From a phage: a DNA stretch of 64,000 nt. This document shows positions 20,708-26,004 of the stretch, one piece after another. The position numbers were made by a program, and so were the translations under genes. Under the pieces are notes generated by a model. The model saw only the letters and a program-made list of their open reading frames with translations, searched no databases and had not been told where the DNA came from. Numbering within the stretch: position 1 is the stretch's first letter; each line of letters starts with the position of its first letter. The stretch lies in the sequence record PX092659.1; one strand, 5' to 3'.

Positions 20708-21130
20708 ATGAGTACTGAAAATAGAGTTATAGACTTAGTGATAGATGAGAAAGTACCTTATGGTCTAATGATGCAATTCTTAGATGTTGATGATAGTACT
20801 TATCCACCTACAAATACCCCTGTTAACTTAACAGGGTATTCCCTAAGGGGTACTATAAAGGCCGGGCTTGATGAGAACGCGGAAACTTTGGCATCTTTTA
20901 CTACTAAAATTATTGATGCTGCTCAAGGTGCTATAGCTATAAGTTTACCTGTAGAGGCGGTAGATAATATTGGTGAAAAAGCTACCAAAGAGAGAGATAA
21001 GTATAACCCTCGCCAACGTTTTGCAGGATACTATGATATAATTATGACACGAGATGTCATAGGATCAGCTATTAGCTCTTTTCGTATAATGGAGGGTAAA
21101 GTATTTATCAGTGATGGGGTAACTAGATAA
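20708..21130 (+). CDS. collar protein (p132-like)
   Basis: 140 aa, between pb4-like gene and L-shaped fibre genes, same size as T5 p132. Confidence 0.5.
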
Positions 21131-23481
21131 TGGCAATAACTACTAAGATTATTGTACAACAAATATTAAATATTGATGATACTAAAGCTACTGCTAGTAA
21201 ATTTCCTAGATACACAGTAACTCTTGGAAATTCTATTAGCTCTATTACTGCTAATGAGTTAGTATCTTCTATAGAGGCTGCTGCTAAATCTGCTGCGGCT
21301 GCAAAAGATTCTGAAATAGCTGCTAAAACCTCAGAACTTAATGCTAAAAACTCTGAACAGGAAGCTGCTATTTCTGCTGGAGCTTCTGAAGCTTCTGCTA
21401 CTCAGTCTGCTACCTCTGCTACTCAGTCTGCCACTTCTGCTACTAAATCTGCAGAATCAGCTGCAGCTGCAAAAACCTCTGAAACTAATGCTAAGTCTAG
21501 TGAAACAAAAGCTAAAACTAGCGAAACTAATGCAAAAGCTAGTGAAACAAAAGCTAAAACTAGCGAAACTAATGCAAAAGCTAGTGAGGATAAGGCAAAG
21601 GCTAGCGAAACTAATGCTGCTGCATCGGCGGCTGATGCAAAAATTAGTGAAGATAAAGCAAAAACCAGTGAGACTAATGCAGCTCAATCAGCGGCTGATT
21701 CTAGCGGTTTTAGGAATGAGGCGGAAATATTTTCTGGGCAAGCTGCTGCATCGGCATCTGCGGCAAAAATCTCTGAAACCAATGCAAAAACCTCGGAAAC
21801 AAAAGCTAAGGCTAGTGAAACTAATGCTGCGGGATCTGCAACTTCTGCCAGCCAATCTGTAGCTGCTATTCAAGTACTTAAATCAGATGTCGAACAGTTA
21901 AAATCTGATACCCAAGCCATTAAAAATAGTGCTGTAACAGAGACAACAGCTTTAAAAGCGGATGTAGAACAGTTAAAATCTGATACCCAGGCCATTAAAA
22001 ATAGTGCTGTAACAGAGACAACAGCTTTAAAAAACCAAGCTGCAACTTCTGCAACTAATGCTGCTAATTCTGCAGCAGAAGCGGGGGGACAGGCTACTGC
22101 TGCTGCTAATAGTGCTAATACTGCTAAAACTGAAGCCGATCGTTCAAAAACTGAGGCTGATAGATCAGAAGCTGCTGCTAATTCTACCCCCGACATTCAA
22201 CCTCTTCCAGATGTATGGATACCGTTTAACGATTCTCTAGATATGATCACCGGCTTTGCACCAGGCTATAAAAAAATAACAGTCGGTGATGAGGAAATAA
22301 CACTGCCTAGTGACAAAATTGTCTCGTTTTCCCGCGCGAGTTCCGCGACCTATATCAATAAGTCCGGCGCTCTTACCATTGCAGAAATTAATGAGCCACG
22401 TTTTGAAAAAGAAGGGCTGTTAATTGAAGGGCAGAGAACTAACTATCTAAAAAATTCTAATACACCGGAATTGTGGTACTACCACAGTTTACTGGCGAAA
22501 GAGTATGGGGTTGATAATTACGGTTTTAATTATGCAACCGTCACCGTGACAGACAGCCTTGTAGGCACAACCAGTAGTTATCAGATTCATAGTGTAACTG
22601 GAGAGAACAGGTTTTCTCTGTCCATCGGTGAAACCTGCACTTTTTCTGCCCGCTTTCGTGGAGTTAATTCACGTTGTCGCGTCCATATATCTCTTGTTAT
22701 TGGCGAAAATGTTAAAACATCTGTTGATGTATGTCTGGAGCCAGATACAGGTGAGGTTAAGGCGTACGGTAATAAGGCGCTGGTGACATTCAGAACGGAA
22801 AAACAGGGGGACTGGTGTTACTTTGAAACAACATATACCGCCGCAGAGAATATTGACGAAGTGGTATGCGGTTTTTTTATAACCAATCCTGAAGATGGTG
22901 GTTTTTCTTCTGATTCGTCATTAACAATGACTACGCCACAAATTGAAAAGGGGTCATGTGCTTCATCATTTATAATCACAGGAGAAACGCCAGCAACTCG
23001 CGCTAGTGACATGGTTTTTATACCAACCGATTGCAATGAACCATCATCTATACCGTTAAGTCTACTTGTTGAGGTAAATAGAAATTGGGATATAGCCCCA
23101 AACTCAGCTCCAAGGATAGTACATGTAGCAAATTTACCAGAAGACCAGTTATTAGTTGCTTTCAGGGTTCCATCAAGCGATACAGTAGAGCCGCTGCCTT
23201 ATTCTCAGTTGGGGGTCAGTCAGTCATTTACGCCAGTATCAACAAAAACAAGCGGGAAAATGGTGACGGGTTTTGTTTGCAACAAAAGCTCAGAATTAAG
23301 ATGCGTAACAAACGCTGTGTTCGGTGCGCCTGTGAAAACAACATGGAAAGCTGGTTTATCTAAAAATCTTCGTATCGGCGGCATAAGTGCAGATGGTGGT
23401 AAACATCTTTTCGGGCATGTCAGAAATTTTAGAATCTGGCATAAAGAATTAACGGATCGTCAAATGAGGGAGTCTGTGTGA
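21130..23481 (+). CDS. ltfA: L-shaped tail fibre protein A (LtfA-like), C-terminal lectin-like receptor-binding domain
   Basis: 783 aa; N-terminal Ala/Ser/Thr/Lys-rich repeat shaft (SETNAKA-type repeats), C-terminal domain with composition shift and ...GHVRNFRIWHKELTDRQM ending resembling LamG/concanavalin-like domains. Confidence 0.68.
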   Translation: MAITTKIIVQQILNIDDTKATASKFPRYTVTLGNSISSITANELVSSIEAAAKSAAAAKDSEIAAKTSELNAKNSEQEAAISAGASEASATQSATSATQSATSATKSAESAAAAKTSETNAKSSETKAKTSETNAKASETKAKTSETNAKASEDKAKASETNAAASAADAKISEDKAKTSETNAAQSAADSSGFRNEAEIFSGQAAASASAAKISETNAKTSETKAKASETNAAGSATSASQSVAAIQVLKSDVEQLKSDTQAIKNSAVTETTALKADVEQLKSDTQAIKNSAVTETTALKNQAATSATNAANSAAEAGGQATAAANSANTAKTEADRSKTEADRSEAAANSTPDIQPLPDVWIPFNDSLDMITGFAPGYKKITVGDEEITLPSDKIVSFSRASSATYINKSGALTIAEINEPRFEKEGLLIEGQRTNYLKNSNTPELWYYHSLLAKEYGVDNYGFNYATVTVTDSLVGTTSSYQIHSVTGENRFSLSIGETCTFSARFRGVNSRCRVHISLVIGENVKTSVDVCLEPDTGEVKAYGNKALVTFRTEKQGDWCYFETTYTAAENIDEVVCGFFITNPEDGGFSSDSSLTMTTPQIEKGSCASSFIITGETPATRASDMVFIPTDCNEPSSIPLSLLVEVNRNWDIAPNSAPRIVHVANLPEDQLLVAFRVPSSDTVEPLPYSQLGVSQSFTPVSTKTSGKMVTGFVCNKSSELRCVTNAVFGAPVKTTWKAGLSKNLRIGGISADGGKHLFGHVRNFRIWHKELTDRQMRESV
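21499..21582 (+). repeat. exact 42-bp tandem duplication inside fibre repeat array
   Basis: agtgaaacaaaagctaaaactagcgaaactaatgcaaaagct occurs twice in tandem (21499-21540, 21541-21582), in frame (SETKAKTSETNAKA); part of degenerate repeat array approx 21280-21870. Confidence 0.85.
21886..22035 (+). repeat. 75-bp tandem direct repeat (2 copies) in ltfA
   Basis: 21886-21960 and 21961-22035 differ at 2-3 positions; encode 25-aa repeat DVEQLKSDTQAIKNSAVTETTALKA. Confidence 0.85.
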
Positions 23482-23756
23482 AAGATATAATATTAAAATT
23501 TAAAGACAAGAACGAATATAAAAATTTCTTAGTTGGAATAAACTGGCAAGAAAATGAAGAGTTACTAGATATGTTTCTCCTGGACGAGATTGGCTATACT
23601 TATACTGAAATCTCCGCACCAGGCGATGAGGAACCTAGATACATCCGTAATGAAGGATACTATGTTAATGTAAGGATTCTTGATGAATCCTTTACTTATG
23701 AATACTTTGAGCCTTTTATAGTTCAGTTGGAACAGCCTCTTAGAGAGTGGGCGTAA
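23478..23756 (+). CDS. hypothetical protein between fibre genes
   Basis: 92 aa, GTG start overlapping ltfA stop (GTGA), acidic; possible fibre assembly factor (inference from position only). Confidence 0.4.
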   Translation: MKDIILKFKDKNEYKNFLVGINWQENEELLDMFLLDEIGYTYTEISAPGDEEPRYIRNEGYYVNVRILDESFTYEYFEPFIVQLEQPLREWA

Positions 23757-23765
23757 GGTTTTATA

Positions 23766-25496
23766 ATGGTAACTAAAACAGTAATTCCTACGGATATTAC
23801 AAAACTTAAAAATGAGTCACTTAACAAGAATAATAATTTAAGTGACTTAGCAGACCGTGCAGCAGCATGGTTAAATGTGCGTCCTATTGGGTCCACCCCT
23901 CTTGCGGGGGATCCTGTTGGGGACTATGATGCCGCAACTAAACGTTGGGTAGAGAATAAGATTAACACTGGTACAGTCGGTCCTACTATGAACGGCGTTA
24001 TGAATTACGGGGTTGGTGATTTCCACCTTCGAGATAGTCGTGCGTATATCCAACCGTACGAAGTGGTTTCTGACGGTCAATTACTGAATCGTGCAGACTG
24101 GCCTGAACTCTGGGCATACGCTCAAATGGTTGGTGTTATAGAGGATTCCGTATGGTTAGCGGATAAATTTCAGCGTGGTAAGTACTCATCTGGGGATGGG
24201 ACAACAACCTTTCGTGTTCCAGATAAGAATGGGGTGCAGGAGGGATCAATACGTGCTCTTTATGGCCGTGGAGATGGTGGGAATAGTGGTGCAAATGGGC
24301 AACTGTTCGAATCCGCTGCGCCTAATATTACAGGTTTTTTCACCACTTATGCCTCTCAAACCTACGGCCAAGTATTAGGTCAAACAGGTGGTTGTTTTAA
24401 TGCAAACAATAATGCTTTCCCTGACGGAAGAGGTGACGGAATCCCACCAGGAAGTACAGCTCTTTCTGGACGTTATAACACCTGTGACTTCAATGCTTCA
24501 ATTTCAAGTCCGATTTATGGCGCATCCACTGATGAAATCCTTACGCGCAACTTTGTCGGTGTGTGGGTAATCCGCGCGTCGGGGGGATTCGTTGCTGCAA
24601 ATACATCATGGAGTGTTATTAACGCTGATAAAACAACTCCCAATTCAGGTGTTGTTGTTTTTGGTGGCAGTGTTAAATCTGAATATAAATCACCCGGTGC
24701 AAATGTAACAGCGGAACTAAAATCAAGTAAAGTAATTAATGGCGCATGGGGTGTTAGCTTAACTATAACAGATGATAGAGGGATCCCTGTAAGCATTAAG
24801 TATGACAGTAATGGTCAGTTTTCAACATCTCATAGGCCATCTGGAGTCGGTACTGGGAGTTCCTATACTCATTGCGCTTATCGCGCGCCAGACTGGTGGA
24901 ATAACACAGCATATAGTGCCTTCGTACCAATTCTTGGAGGTGGTAGCGGTAACTCACTAAAGAACTATAGATCTTTTGCTTGTTTTGGACAAATATCTTA
25001 TCCTGATTCTAGTAATAGTTATCCTAGAGCTGCAATTGCTCAAGTAAGGGATTGGGCACTACCAGATGGTGAACAAGGTAACGGCAAGAGTATTACCGTG
25101 TTTACGTTTATTGATAATTCATTTGACCTTCAATATGGGTACAACGATGGTTCGCTAAACTATATTTTTTCAAAATCTCCAATTTGTGATGAAAGATTAA
25201 AGAAAAATATTGAATCCATTGATACTAATATTGCAATAAGTAATATTAAGCAGATGTTATATAAATCATACATCTATAAAAATGACGAGAATGAACAGGT
25301 GCGCCGTGGTTTTATAGCTCAGGATTTACAGAAAATAGATCCCCAATATGTGCGGGAATATGGAGATCCTGGAAGAGAGAAAACGTTGGCCATTGATGAA
25401 AACGTTATGTTGCTTGATTCAGTTGCTGCGGTTAAGTGGCTTATTAATAAAGTTGAGGAGTTGCAAGAAGAAATAAATGTATTGAAAGCTAAGTAA
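23766..25496 (+). CDS. ltfB: tail fibre protein with phage-tail-collar domain and C-terminal intramolecular chaperone domain (LtfB-like)
   Basis: 576 aa; N-terminal region with collar-domain-like segment (LNRADWPELWAYAQ...TTFRVPD); C-terminus RRGFIAQDLQKIDPQYV...LAIDENVMLLDSVAAVKWL matches S74-type intramolecular chaperone/autoprotease module. Confidence 0.7.
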   Translation: MVTKTVIPTDITKLKNESLNKNNNLSDLADRAAAWLNVRPIGSTPLAGDPVGDYDAATKRWVENKINTGTVGPTMNGVMNYGVGDFHLRDSRAYIQPYEVVSDGQLLNRADWPELWAYAQMVGVIEDSVWLADKFQRGKYSSGDGTTTFRVPDKNGVQEGSIRALYGRGDGGNSGANGQLFESAAPNITGFFTTYASQTYGQVLGQTGGCFNANNNAFPDGRGDGIPPGSTALSGRYNTCDFNASISSPIYGASTDEILTRNFVGVWVIRASGGFVAANTSWSVINADKTTPNSGVVVFGGSVKSEYKSPGANVTAELKSSKVINGAWGVSLTITDDRGIPVSIKYDSNGQFSTSHRPSGVGTGSSYTHCAYRAPDWWNNTAYSAFVPILGGGSGNSLKNYRSFACFGQISYPDSSNSYPRAAIAQVRDWALPDGEQGNGKSITVFTFIDNSFDLQYGYNDGSLNYIFSKSPICDERLKKNIESIDTNIAISNIKQMLYKSYIYKNDENEQVRRGFIAQDLQKIDPQYVREYGDPGREKTLAIDENVMLLDSVAAVKWLINKVEELQEEINVLKAK

Positions 25497-25503
25497 AAGA
25501 AAA

Positions 25504-25545
25504 CCCCAGAGGGCTATCCCTCTGGGGTTTATTATTATTATTTAT
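25504..25545. terminator. bidirectional intrinsic terminator between convergent late and early modules
   Basis: CCCCAGAGGGCTATCCCTCTGGGG hairpin flanked by A-run upstream and TTTATTATTATT downstream; lies between stop of ltfB (+) and stop of dut (-). Confidence 0.8.
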
Positions 25546-25557
25546 TTGATACGTAGA

Positions 25558-26004
25558 TTATTTACTTCCTGAGCTTCCAAAGCCGCCTTCTCCACGATTA
25601 GTCTCCCCTAGTTCGTCAACGATTTCAAAATTATGGGTTGAATAGTGGGGTAGTACCACTAGCTGACAAAGTCTTTCAAAATTTTCCAAAGTTTGAATTT
25701 CAGAACCATAGTTGAACAGGTTCATCTTAATAGTTCCACGATAGTCTGAGTCGATCACTCCTGCAGTATTTGCAATCATCAGATGGCGTTTACCTAAAGA
25801 GCTGCGTGGAACTACCAAACCGAACCAACCTCGCGGAATTTCCACCGCGACACCGGTGTCAATCATTAAGGATTTGCCTGGTGCAATAGCCCGTAAATCT
25901 GCAGCAGGGTTAGTACCAAAGAATGCTCGCAGATCCATACCTGCGGCATCTTCAGAGCCGATCTTAGGCATACAATCTGGATGAGTTAACTTAATTTTAA
26001 TCAT
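25558..26004 (-). CDS. dut: dUTP pyrophosphatase
   Basis: 148 aa; dUTPase motifs AAGMDLRA, RSSLGKRH, GVIDSDYRG, and C-terminal RGEGGFGSSG. Confidence 0.88.
   Translation of the reverse strand: MIKIKLTHPDCMPKIGSEDAAGMDLRAFFGTNPAADLRAIAPGKSLMIDTGVAVEIPRGWFGLVVPRSSLGKRHLMIANTAGVIDSDYRGTIKMNLFNYGSEIQTLENFERLCQLVVLPHYSTHNFEIVDELGETNRGEGGFGSSGSK

Follow-up and report, generated by a model that had tools for sequence, protein, structure and literature searches.

What does the C-terminal end of a lateral tail fibre contribute to a T5-like phage, and does it by itself decide which hosts are recognised? This question is raised by ltfA in a 64,000-nt stretch of a Tequintavirus (sequence record PX092659.1; the whole stretch is called the window below). 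The open reading frame (ORF), at 21130-23481 on the plus strand, encodes the proximal lateral-tail-fibre subunit LtfA, a protein of 783 aa ending in ...HLFGHVRNFRIWHKELTDRQMRESV. A preliminary description of this DNA proposed that from about nt 22200 an AT-rich repeat shaft gives way to E. coli-like codon usage, and that the protein ends in a horizontally exchanged, LamG/concanavalin-like carbohydrate-binding domain, probably the host-range determinant. In this study, the C-terminal module was found to consist of a conserved neck and two beta-sandwich domains, D1 and D2 (Table 1); the genes downstream encode p92, a partner of 92 aa, and LtfB, a distal fibre. On balance, the module is probably an auxiliary lectin-type tip that binds glycans at the joint of a compound fibre, and one of several host-range determinants.

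Side and lateral fibres of many coliphage lineages, and of lambdoid and Rac-like E. coli prophages, carry the module at their very C-terminus as a mobile cassette. When window positions 21000-25600 were compared by blastn with E. coli lambdoid prophage loci, the homology started exactly at nt 22198, with 91% identity up to nt 23090 for one prophage (L003) and 88.6% identity over 22198-23508 for another (L002). Chromosomal matches to the module were found in 170 of 5426 complete E. coli genomes, the best of them with 96% nucleotide identity over 22198-23472 in a Rac-like prophage region beside trkG/ydaY. The prophage side-tail-fibre (Stf) proteins combine a lambda Stf-type N-terminus (PF08400) with a C-terminal 427 aa that shows 80-88% aa identity to the window. 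Moreover, tblastn detected the module in 218 phage records, including T5-like, lambda-like (Jouyvirus), T1-like, Dhillonvirus, Nonag-/Seuratvirus (Queuovirinae) and rV5-like phages, and an exhaustive HMMER search returned 1434 clusters (50% identity) with E<=1e-3. In all but one of the 100 full-coverage relatives inspected, the match stops 0-6 residues from the protein end, the exception being an 873-aa protein with several matched stretches. The sharp junction and the discordant adjacent segments are those of a horizontally exchanged tail-fibre cassette, so the proposal of horizontal exchange is borne out. The preliminary description had also named C-terminal homology restricted to T5 pb1 orthologs as a point that would speak against it; the homologues belong to several phage families, and no similarity to the C-terminus of pb1 was found. 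The best E. coli match (L009 3345-6275, E. coli 300490) ends a 976-aa ORF annotated as 'tape measure family protein'; this ORF probably represents an Stf, either wrongly named or fused, of a degraded Rac-like prophage.

Within the module, identity measured in 30-aa bins changes abruptly from one segment to the next. The best DNA match of ltfA is Escherichia phage T5_ev219 (95.4% identity across 80% of the gene). To this phage aa 339-428 are 93-100% identical, whereas aa 459-608, inside the D1 core (aa 429-608), are only 20-40% identical (73% in the edge bin 429-458), and blastn against T5_ev219 gave no match at nt 22480-22928. The D1 core instead shows 100% aa identity to prophage L003. For the D2 core (aa 639-758), by comparison, identity is high to both T5_ev219 (93-100%) and prophage L002 (96-100%) and drops to 33-56% in L003. 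Each of the two cores has been swapped independently of the other, with recombination at conserved framework motifs: the allele switches coincide with NEPRFEKEGLLIEGQ.TN, Q.E..ASS.I.T.G...TRA.D and LFGH.RN.RIWH..LTD.Q, and the invariant alignment columns (P9, G19, G73, N82, Q248, E250, S257) all lie within framework motifs. The neck is the most conserved part of the family and forms the 5' junction of the prophage Stf homology. A conserved scaffold bearing two variable cores that are exchanged separately is what would be expected of receptor-binding surfaces.

The fold of the module was examined with an AlphaFold2 model built from a 101-sequence alignment. The model, a monomer whose domain boundaries were set by profile and secondary-structure limits and not by contacts, is all-beta (predicted local distance difference test score 93.5, predicted template-modelling score 0.90) and shows concanavalin A (ConA)-like beta-sandwich folds. 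Foldseek matched it to tandem galectin-8, laminin LG and a baseplate chain of phage E217, and the predicted curved two-sheet jelly-roll sandwich places the module in the concanavalin A-like lectin/glucanase superfamily, whose Pfam clan includes Laminin_G_3, CBM_4_9, pentraxin and galectin domains. D1 (aa 431-625) matched NCBIfam NF048003 GTA_spike_fiber with 70.8 bits (cut-off 36; E 2.1e-19; profile positions 1-181 of 182). Furthermore, the family profile matched, in D1, the PDB sequence of the head-spike fibre Rcc01080 of the Rhodobacter capsulatus gene transfer agent (RcGTA; E 2.1e-36). The carbohydrate-binding-module domain CBM_4_9 was found in 9 of 76 relatives, and its match in a relative maps to D1. 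For D2, profile matches were obtained with the S-layer-domain protein 4qvs (3.3e-5) and C-reactive protein (0.05). Laminin_G_3 (PF13385) was detected in 55 of the 76 relatives at E<=0.01 (best 2e-10), and four of six relatives checked reach its gathering score (28-33 bits; cut-off 27.6). The checked matches cover the stretch corresponding to aa ~652-778 and stop at profile position 150/151, on the motif GHVRNFRIWHKELTDRQM. This is the C-terminal motif quoted in the preliminary description, which is indeed present at aa 762-779 (nt 23413-23466), and its LamG/concanavalin-like call agrees with both the model and the relatives. The window LtfA itself gave no match to PF13385 at E<=1 and stays below the gathering score of 27.6 bits; the LamG assignment comes from structure and relatives, not from a direct Pfam match, and the sequence belongs to Laminin_G_3 by transitivity through its family.

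The least expected element of the locus is p92, a near-universal partner of the module that may be an adaptor or a chaperone. The order of module, 92-aa ORF overlapping the stop codon and third ORF ~10 nt further on recurs in several lineages. It was found as module, p92 and distal fibre in IrisVonRoten, in a lambdoid prophage (346-aa S74 fibre), in the T1-like phage tunus (245-aa fibre) and in Dhillonvirus LM40P1. In addition, p92 follows the module in lambda-like phages, and an rV5-like phage carries a distant homologue of 110 aa (32% identical, E 2e-9). At the p92 loci of IMG/VR, the C-terminal motif of the module lies directly upstream in 79 of 80 cases and an ORF starting M.T.T.IP.DI..LK lies downstream in 78 of 80. 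The two loci without that downstream ORF comprise a contig end and a Lambda_ev203-type locus in which a 97-aa hydrophobic protein comes next. p92 accompanies the ConA-like module in at least six phage or prophage lineages. It belongs to phrog_1361, a family without an assigned function, and probably serves the module as an assembly factor or adaptor. The sole p92 locus whose upstream ORF is without the LamG-type motif is L037 of IMG/VR, where the ORF ends in ...GRTDVRKFIGEY and may represent a different tip or a frameshift. The 97-aa hydrophobic protein (MDI.P.LHALCAVAAQ...) is encoded at L003 11553-11846, with a G+C content at third codon positions (GC3) of 0.52, and at L007 5545-5838. It follows the fibre cassette in a lambdoid prophage, stands directly after p92 in Lambda_ev203, which has no distal fibre, and may be a membrane or lysogenic-conversion gene.

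The distal fibres of the different lineages share only their N-terminus and the S74 chaperone. Those starting with M.T.T.IP.DI..LK measure 155-586 aa and come from very different lineages, and this motif, encoded at 23766-23820 in the window, is a candidate docking peptide. Between p92 and its IrisVonRoten counterpart, 71 of 92 residues are identical, with 30 of 46 in the N-terminal half and 41 of 46 in the C-terminal half; this may reflect contacts with the variable D2 on one side and the conserved LtfB N-terminus on the other, or only a recombination breakpoint. A tentative extension, which we consider possible but would not favour, is that p92 and the conserved neck form a universal 'socket' for any distal fibre starting with M.T.T.IP.DI..LK. 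Such a socket would be common to the fibres of T5-like, T1-like, Dhillonvirus and Queuovirinae phages and of lambdoid/Rac prophages, and rV5-like phages would carry a distant version of it. If so, docking would be plug-and-play across phage families and would let virulent and temperate coliphages trade receptor-binding fibres; p92 would then serve as an adaptor, so far uncharacterised, or as a dedicated chaperone.

Taken together, these observations favour, with somewhat better than even confidence, a module that acts as an auxiliary glycan-binding tip. After the coiled-coil shaft, each LtfA chain would end in the conserved neck and two ConA-like beta-sandwich domains. The variable D1 and D2 cores may bind surface glycans (O-antigen or capsule) in the manner of lectins and so make the first, reversible contact. 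The conserved neck and the adjacent 92-aa protein would together form a joint carrying the interchangeable distal fibre LtfB, which would add further and probably dominant specificity. Since p92 almost always and a distal fibre usually follow the module, and since a homologue of LtfB has receptor-binding domains (RBDs) of its own, the module is probably an auxiliary tip and not 'the' host-range determinant. The lectin-type fold is in keeping with the carbohydrate-binding role proposed earlier, whereas the claim of a single determinant was overstated, as p92 and an LtfB with its own predicted RBDs adjoin the module. LtfB is probably the main receptor-binding component of the fibre. Several points weigh against this interpretation. 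The glycan role rests on the fold, the distant homology to the RcGTA fibre (GhsB) and allelic variability, and the window's own sequence has no Pfam match at E<=1. Moreover, ConA-like sandwiches also serve structural and protein-binding roles, as in Pa193 gp46 and E217 gp45, which are baseplate components, and given its strict linkage to p92 and the distal fibre the module could be mainly a connector.

In its strongest form, the last point would make the ConA-like module and p92 a connector or scaffold, a structural joint without any host binding, with all specificity in LtfB. We regard this as unlikely, yet it survives better than the other alternatives. It would account for the near-constant co-occurrence of the module, p92 and a distal fibre of conserved N-terminus and for the high conservation of the neck, and the two baseplate components are the nearest phage structural matches. 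In addition, O16 recognition in IrisVonRoten has been given to the Gp12-like RBD of the distal fibre, according to the accessible text of the report (PMC11990801). However, D1 and D2 cores that are hypervariable between flanks of 93-100% identity and independently exchanged would be needless in a pure connector, loci of the Lambda_ev203 type keep the module and p92 without a distal fibre, and D1 is homologous to a proven capsule-binding adhesin.

Less probable still is the reading of the preliminary description, in which the module is the principal host-range determinant and, judging by its codon usage, a recent import from an E. coli genome. The 96% nucleotide identity to chromosomal (prophage) genes of E. 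coli and the lectin-type fold are in its favour, and the break that it placed near nt 22200 is real. GC3 rises from 0.174 in codons 1-356 to 0.347 in codons 357-783. The maximum-likelihood change-point falls at codon 352 (nt 22186), 12 nt from the homology junction at nt 22198, with a log-likelihood ratio of 17.0 that was equalled in 0 of 1000 codon shuffles. The GC3 expected from amino-acid composition is 0.259 for the shaft and 0.283 for the C-terminal part; therefore, most of the difference is synonymous, and a mere effect of amino-acid content was rejected. Total GC, on the other hand, is 0.408 before nt 22200 and 0.422 after it, and 300-nt windows remain at 0.40-0.45 all along the gene. 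A uniform composition, which had been named beforehand as evidence against the proposal, thus holds for total GC, yet GC3 breaks sharply.

The break is not of the kind first described. With a mean GC of 0.388 for the window, the shaft is slightly richer in GC than the window as a whole and not AT-rich overall. The 52 other genes of the window have a GC3 of 0.297 (standard deviation 0.063 per 100 codons); against these, the C-terminal part lies at about the 75th-95th percentile and the shaft below the 2.5th. The compositional outlier is the repeat shaft, and the C-terminal module is near the phage background. After correction for amino-acid content, the GC3 deviations of the two halves have opposite signs (z -3.7 and +3.1), and both are within the range of the other window genes (-3.7 to +4.0). 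The codons CGC, CCG and CTG are each absent from the shaft and occur 4, 4 and 7 times, respectively, in the C-terminal part. Counted together with GCG, they amount to 49 per 1000 codons there, compared with 30 in the phage background, 111 in E. coli chromosomal genes and 140 in prophage tail genes, and several phage genes of the window have from more than 50 up to 98 per 1000. The GC3 of 0.35 likewise falls short of the 0.48-0.66 of E. coli genes. On these codon counts and GC3 values, the usage is not E. coli-like, and composition was rejected as evidence of origin.

Furthermore, the GC3 of the module is alike in phage and prophage settings (0.35-0.36), and in the prophage (0.36) the module is an AT-rich outlier against the Stf shaft (0.49) and the neighbouring tail genes (0.66), which argues against an E. 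coli-adapted origin. Therefore, the GC3 step is the scar of a cassette junction and no sign of E. coli-adapted DNA. Against a role as principal determinant, two further RBDs are predicted in LtfB, which belongs to the same fibre. T5-like phages, moreover, bind their terminal receptor through pb5 and can dispense with the lateral fibres on rough strains (PMC8594841). Finally, an enzymatic tip, in which a ConA-like glucanase of the glycoside hydrolase family 16 (GH16) type would depolymerise O-antigen or capsule, can practically be dismissed, as the GH16 score is 12.5 bits against a family cut-off of 350, no ExDx(x)E motif occurs in the sequence, no invariant acidic residues appear in the D1 and D2 cores of the alignments, and lectin, carbohydrate-binding-module and toxin-binding domains score much higher.

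The preferred reading, an auxiliary tip at the joint of a compound fibre, has some bearing beyond this locus. Virulent T5-like phages and resident E. coli prophages use one shared pool of fibre tips. The junction at nt 22198 and the allele boundaries (~aa 429/608 and 639/758), which sit in conserved framework motifs, mark the places at which fibres of this class can be taken apart and re-joined. Such sites could help to adapt T5-like phages to further O-antigen or capsule types, although the practical value is modest.

Table 1. Features of the lateral-tail-fibre locus in the window
Feature	Position (nt)	Strand	Basis
LtfC-like collar protein, anchors the lateral fibre	20708..21130	+	Pfam PF23926 LtfC, E 8.4e-15
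LtfA N-terminal LtfC-binding segment and Ala/Ser/Thr/Lys/Glu-rich repeat shaft, aa 1-356	21130..22197	+	DT57C LtfA match, tandem repeats, low GC3 (0.174)
C-module, conserved neck, aa 357-430 (PDIQPLPDVWIPFNDSL...FSRASSATYINKSG...NEPRFEKEGLLIEGQRTNY)	22198..22419	+	blastn junction, near-invariant alignment columns, 93-100% identity to T5_ev219
C-module, domain 1 (D1), aa 431-625, beta-sandwich, RcGTA head-spike-fibre homologue, CBM_4_9-like	22420..23004	+	NF048003 and profile matches
C-module, domain 2 (D2), aa 626-783 plus stop, Laminin_G_3/pentraxin-like beta-sandwich, ends in GHVRNFRIWHKELTDRQM	23005..23481	+	Laminin_G_3 matches of relatives, profile matches
p92, 92-aa partner, GTG start overlaps the ltfA stop	23478..23756	+	phrog_1361; synteny
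LtfB-like distal fibre, 576 aa, C-terminal intramolecular chaperone	23766..25496	+	Peptidase_S74 at aa 474-529, E 1.8e-13

Upstream of ltfA lie pb4, with four PB4 Pfam domains, and then the gene of the LtfC-like collar protein. The 5' part of ltfA does encode the repeat shaft that had been described: Tandem Repeats Finder detected 21/42/63-nt arrays (21385-21699) and, at 21886-22032, a duplication of 75 nt, the copies of which are 97% identical and encode the 25-aa unit DVEQLKSDTQAIKNSAVTETTALKA. The residues of the shaft are 26% Ala, 15% Ser and 12% Thr. In T5_ev219, LtfA is longer by 25 aa (808 vs 783) and the blastn offsets differ by 75 nt, which suggests that the copy number of the 75-nt unit varies between the two phages; a motif search by regular expression for a third copy in T5_ev219, however, found two copies only. 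Long ORFs in an alternative frame (21341-21862, plus strand, 173 aa) and antisense (21870-22196, minus strand, 108 aa) have Leu/Lys- or Ala/Ser-rich low-complexity translations and appear to be shadows of the shaft repeats and no real genes. At E<=1, a Pfam scan of the 783-aa LtfA found no domain in the C-terminal part and only a spurious HALZ match in the shaft, and depolymerase and T7 gp17 matches obtained with phmmer for the whole LtfA against the PDB were rejected as enzyme domains, being due to the low-complexity shaft repeats. Downstream, the GC peak of the neighbourhood (0.45-0.48) lies inside ltfB, at 23800-24600. LtfB departs from its IrisVonRoten counterpart Gp24 from ~aa 180 (nt ~24300), and the composition of ltfB is as patchy as that of ltfA.

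Mosaic, glycan-directed lateral-fibre loci are established in coliphages (PMC8594841), and the locus was compared with several known systems. T5 pb1 (Ltf) resembles the window LtfA in its N-terminal ~200 aa only (aa 3-201 match phrog_24369); the C-terminal module has no similarity to the RBD or the intramolecular chaperone of pb1, with no PDB sequence match at E<=1 and no S74 domain. The LtfA of DT57C/DT571-2 (Golomidova 2016, PMC4728585; PDB 8hqz) is closer in plan, since its branched lateral tail fibre likewise consists of two proteins with the second subunit hung on the first, and its N-terminal ~209 aa are shared (aa 1-209 against PDB 8hqz_d, E 5.9e-33). The rest of the window LtfA has no match to it. 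The DT57C protein carries its own RBD, a Peptidase_S74 chaperone and a phiEco32 gp14-like docking region, whereas the window LtfA is without these three; its end is formed by ConA-like domains, and a separate gene for a 92-aa protein comes next. In pb1 and DT57C-type LtfA the S74 chaperone is on the same polypeptide; in the window, the Pfam scan found Peptidase_S74 (PF13884) only in the downstream 576-aa LtfB and not in LtfA.

The homologue of D1 in RcGTA, Rcc01080/GhsB (PDB 6tb9 sequence), is described in the accessible text of two reports as a flexible monomer, an adhesin that binds polysaccharide and sits on a virion-like particle, and the head-spike fibre binds Rhodobacter capsular polysaccharide experimentally (PMC7296036; PMC10218006). 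Only residues 2-10 of GhsB are resolved in the structure (PDB 6tb9; PMC7296036). GhsB differs from the window fibre in that an N-terminal Leu-Gly repeat attaches it to capsid pentons and not to a tail fibre, no LamG_3-type second domain was matched, and its host belongs to another clade. The Stf proteins of lambdoid and Rac-like E. coli prophages, named 'phage head spike fiber domain-containing protein' by NCBI, are much closer. Their homologous C-terminal 427 aa are followed by a 92/93-aa ORF and an S74 fibre. However, they attach by the lambda Stf-type N-terminus (PF08400) in place of the T5 LtfC-binding segment, their shaft is E. coli-like (GC3 0.49 vs 0.17 in the window), and their distal fibres differ from the window LtfB beyond the first ~17 aa and the S74 domain.

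The closest known system is the compound lateral fibre of IrisVonRoten (Bas32), with which the window shares full-length homology of both subunits and the gene order of LtfC, fibre, 92-aa ORF and ~575-aa distal fibre. The window LtfA is 65% identical to Gp22 (bas32_0022) over its full length, the N-terminal ~440 aa being nearly the same, and LtfB shares 50% overall identity with Gp24, rising to near-identity in the first ~175 aa. In the portions of the report by Humolli et al. (2025, PLoS Biol, PMC11990801) available to us, the T-shaped distal fibre Gp24 is modelled as attaching to the proximal Gp22 and as comprising a Gp12-like RBD1, a T5-like RBD2 and a chaperone. O16 recognition is assigned to the Gp12-like RBD, the T-shaped fibre is treated as the main O-antigen binder, and the 'galectin-like' C-terminus of Gp22 is offered only as a possible additional RBD; these portions contain neither the two-domain mosaic nor the prophage counterparts nor the linkage to p92. 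Identity to Gp22 falls to 13-40% in the 30-aa bins of aa 459-758, and to ~45% over the whole module; as the variable cores differ, the window module is another allele. Thus, the module described here adds a new allele to a fibre type already published and is an instance of ordinary tail-fibre mosaicism that leaves the known picture unchanged.

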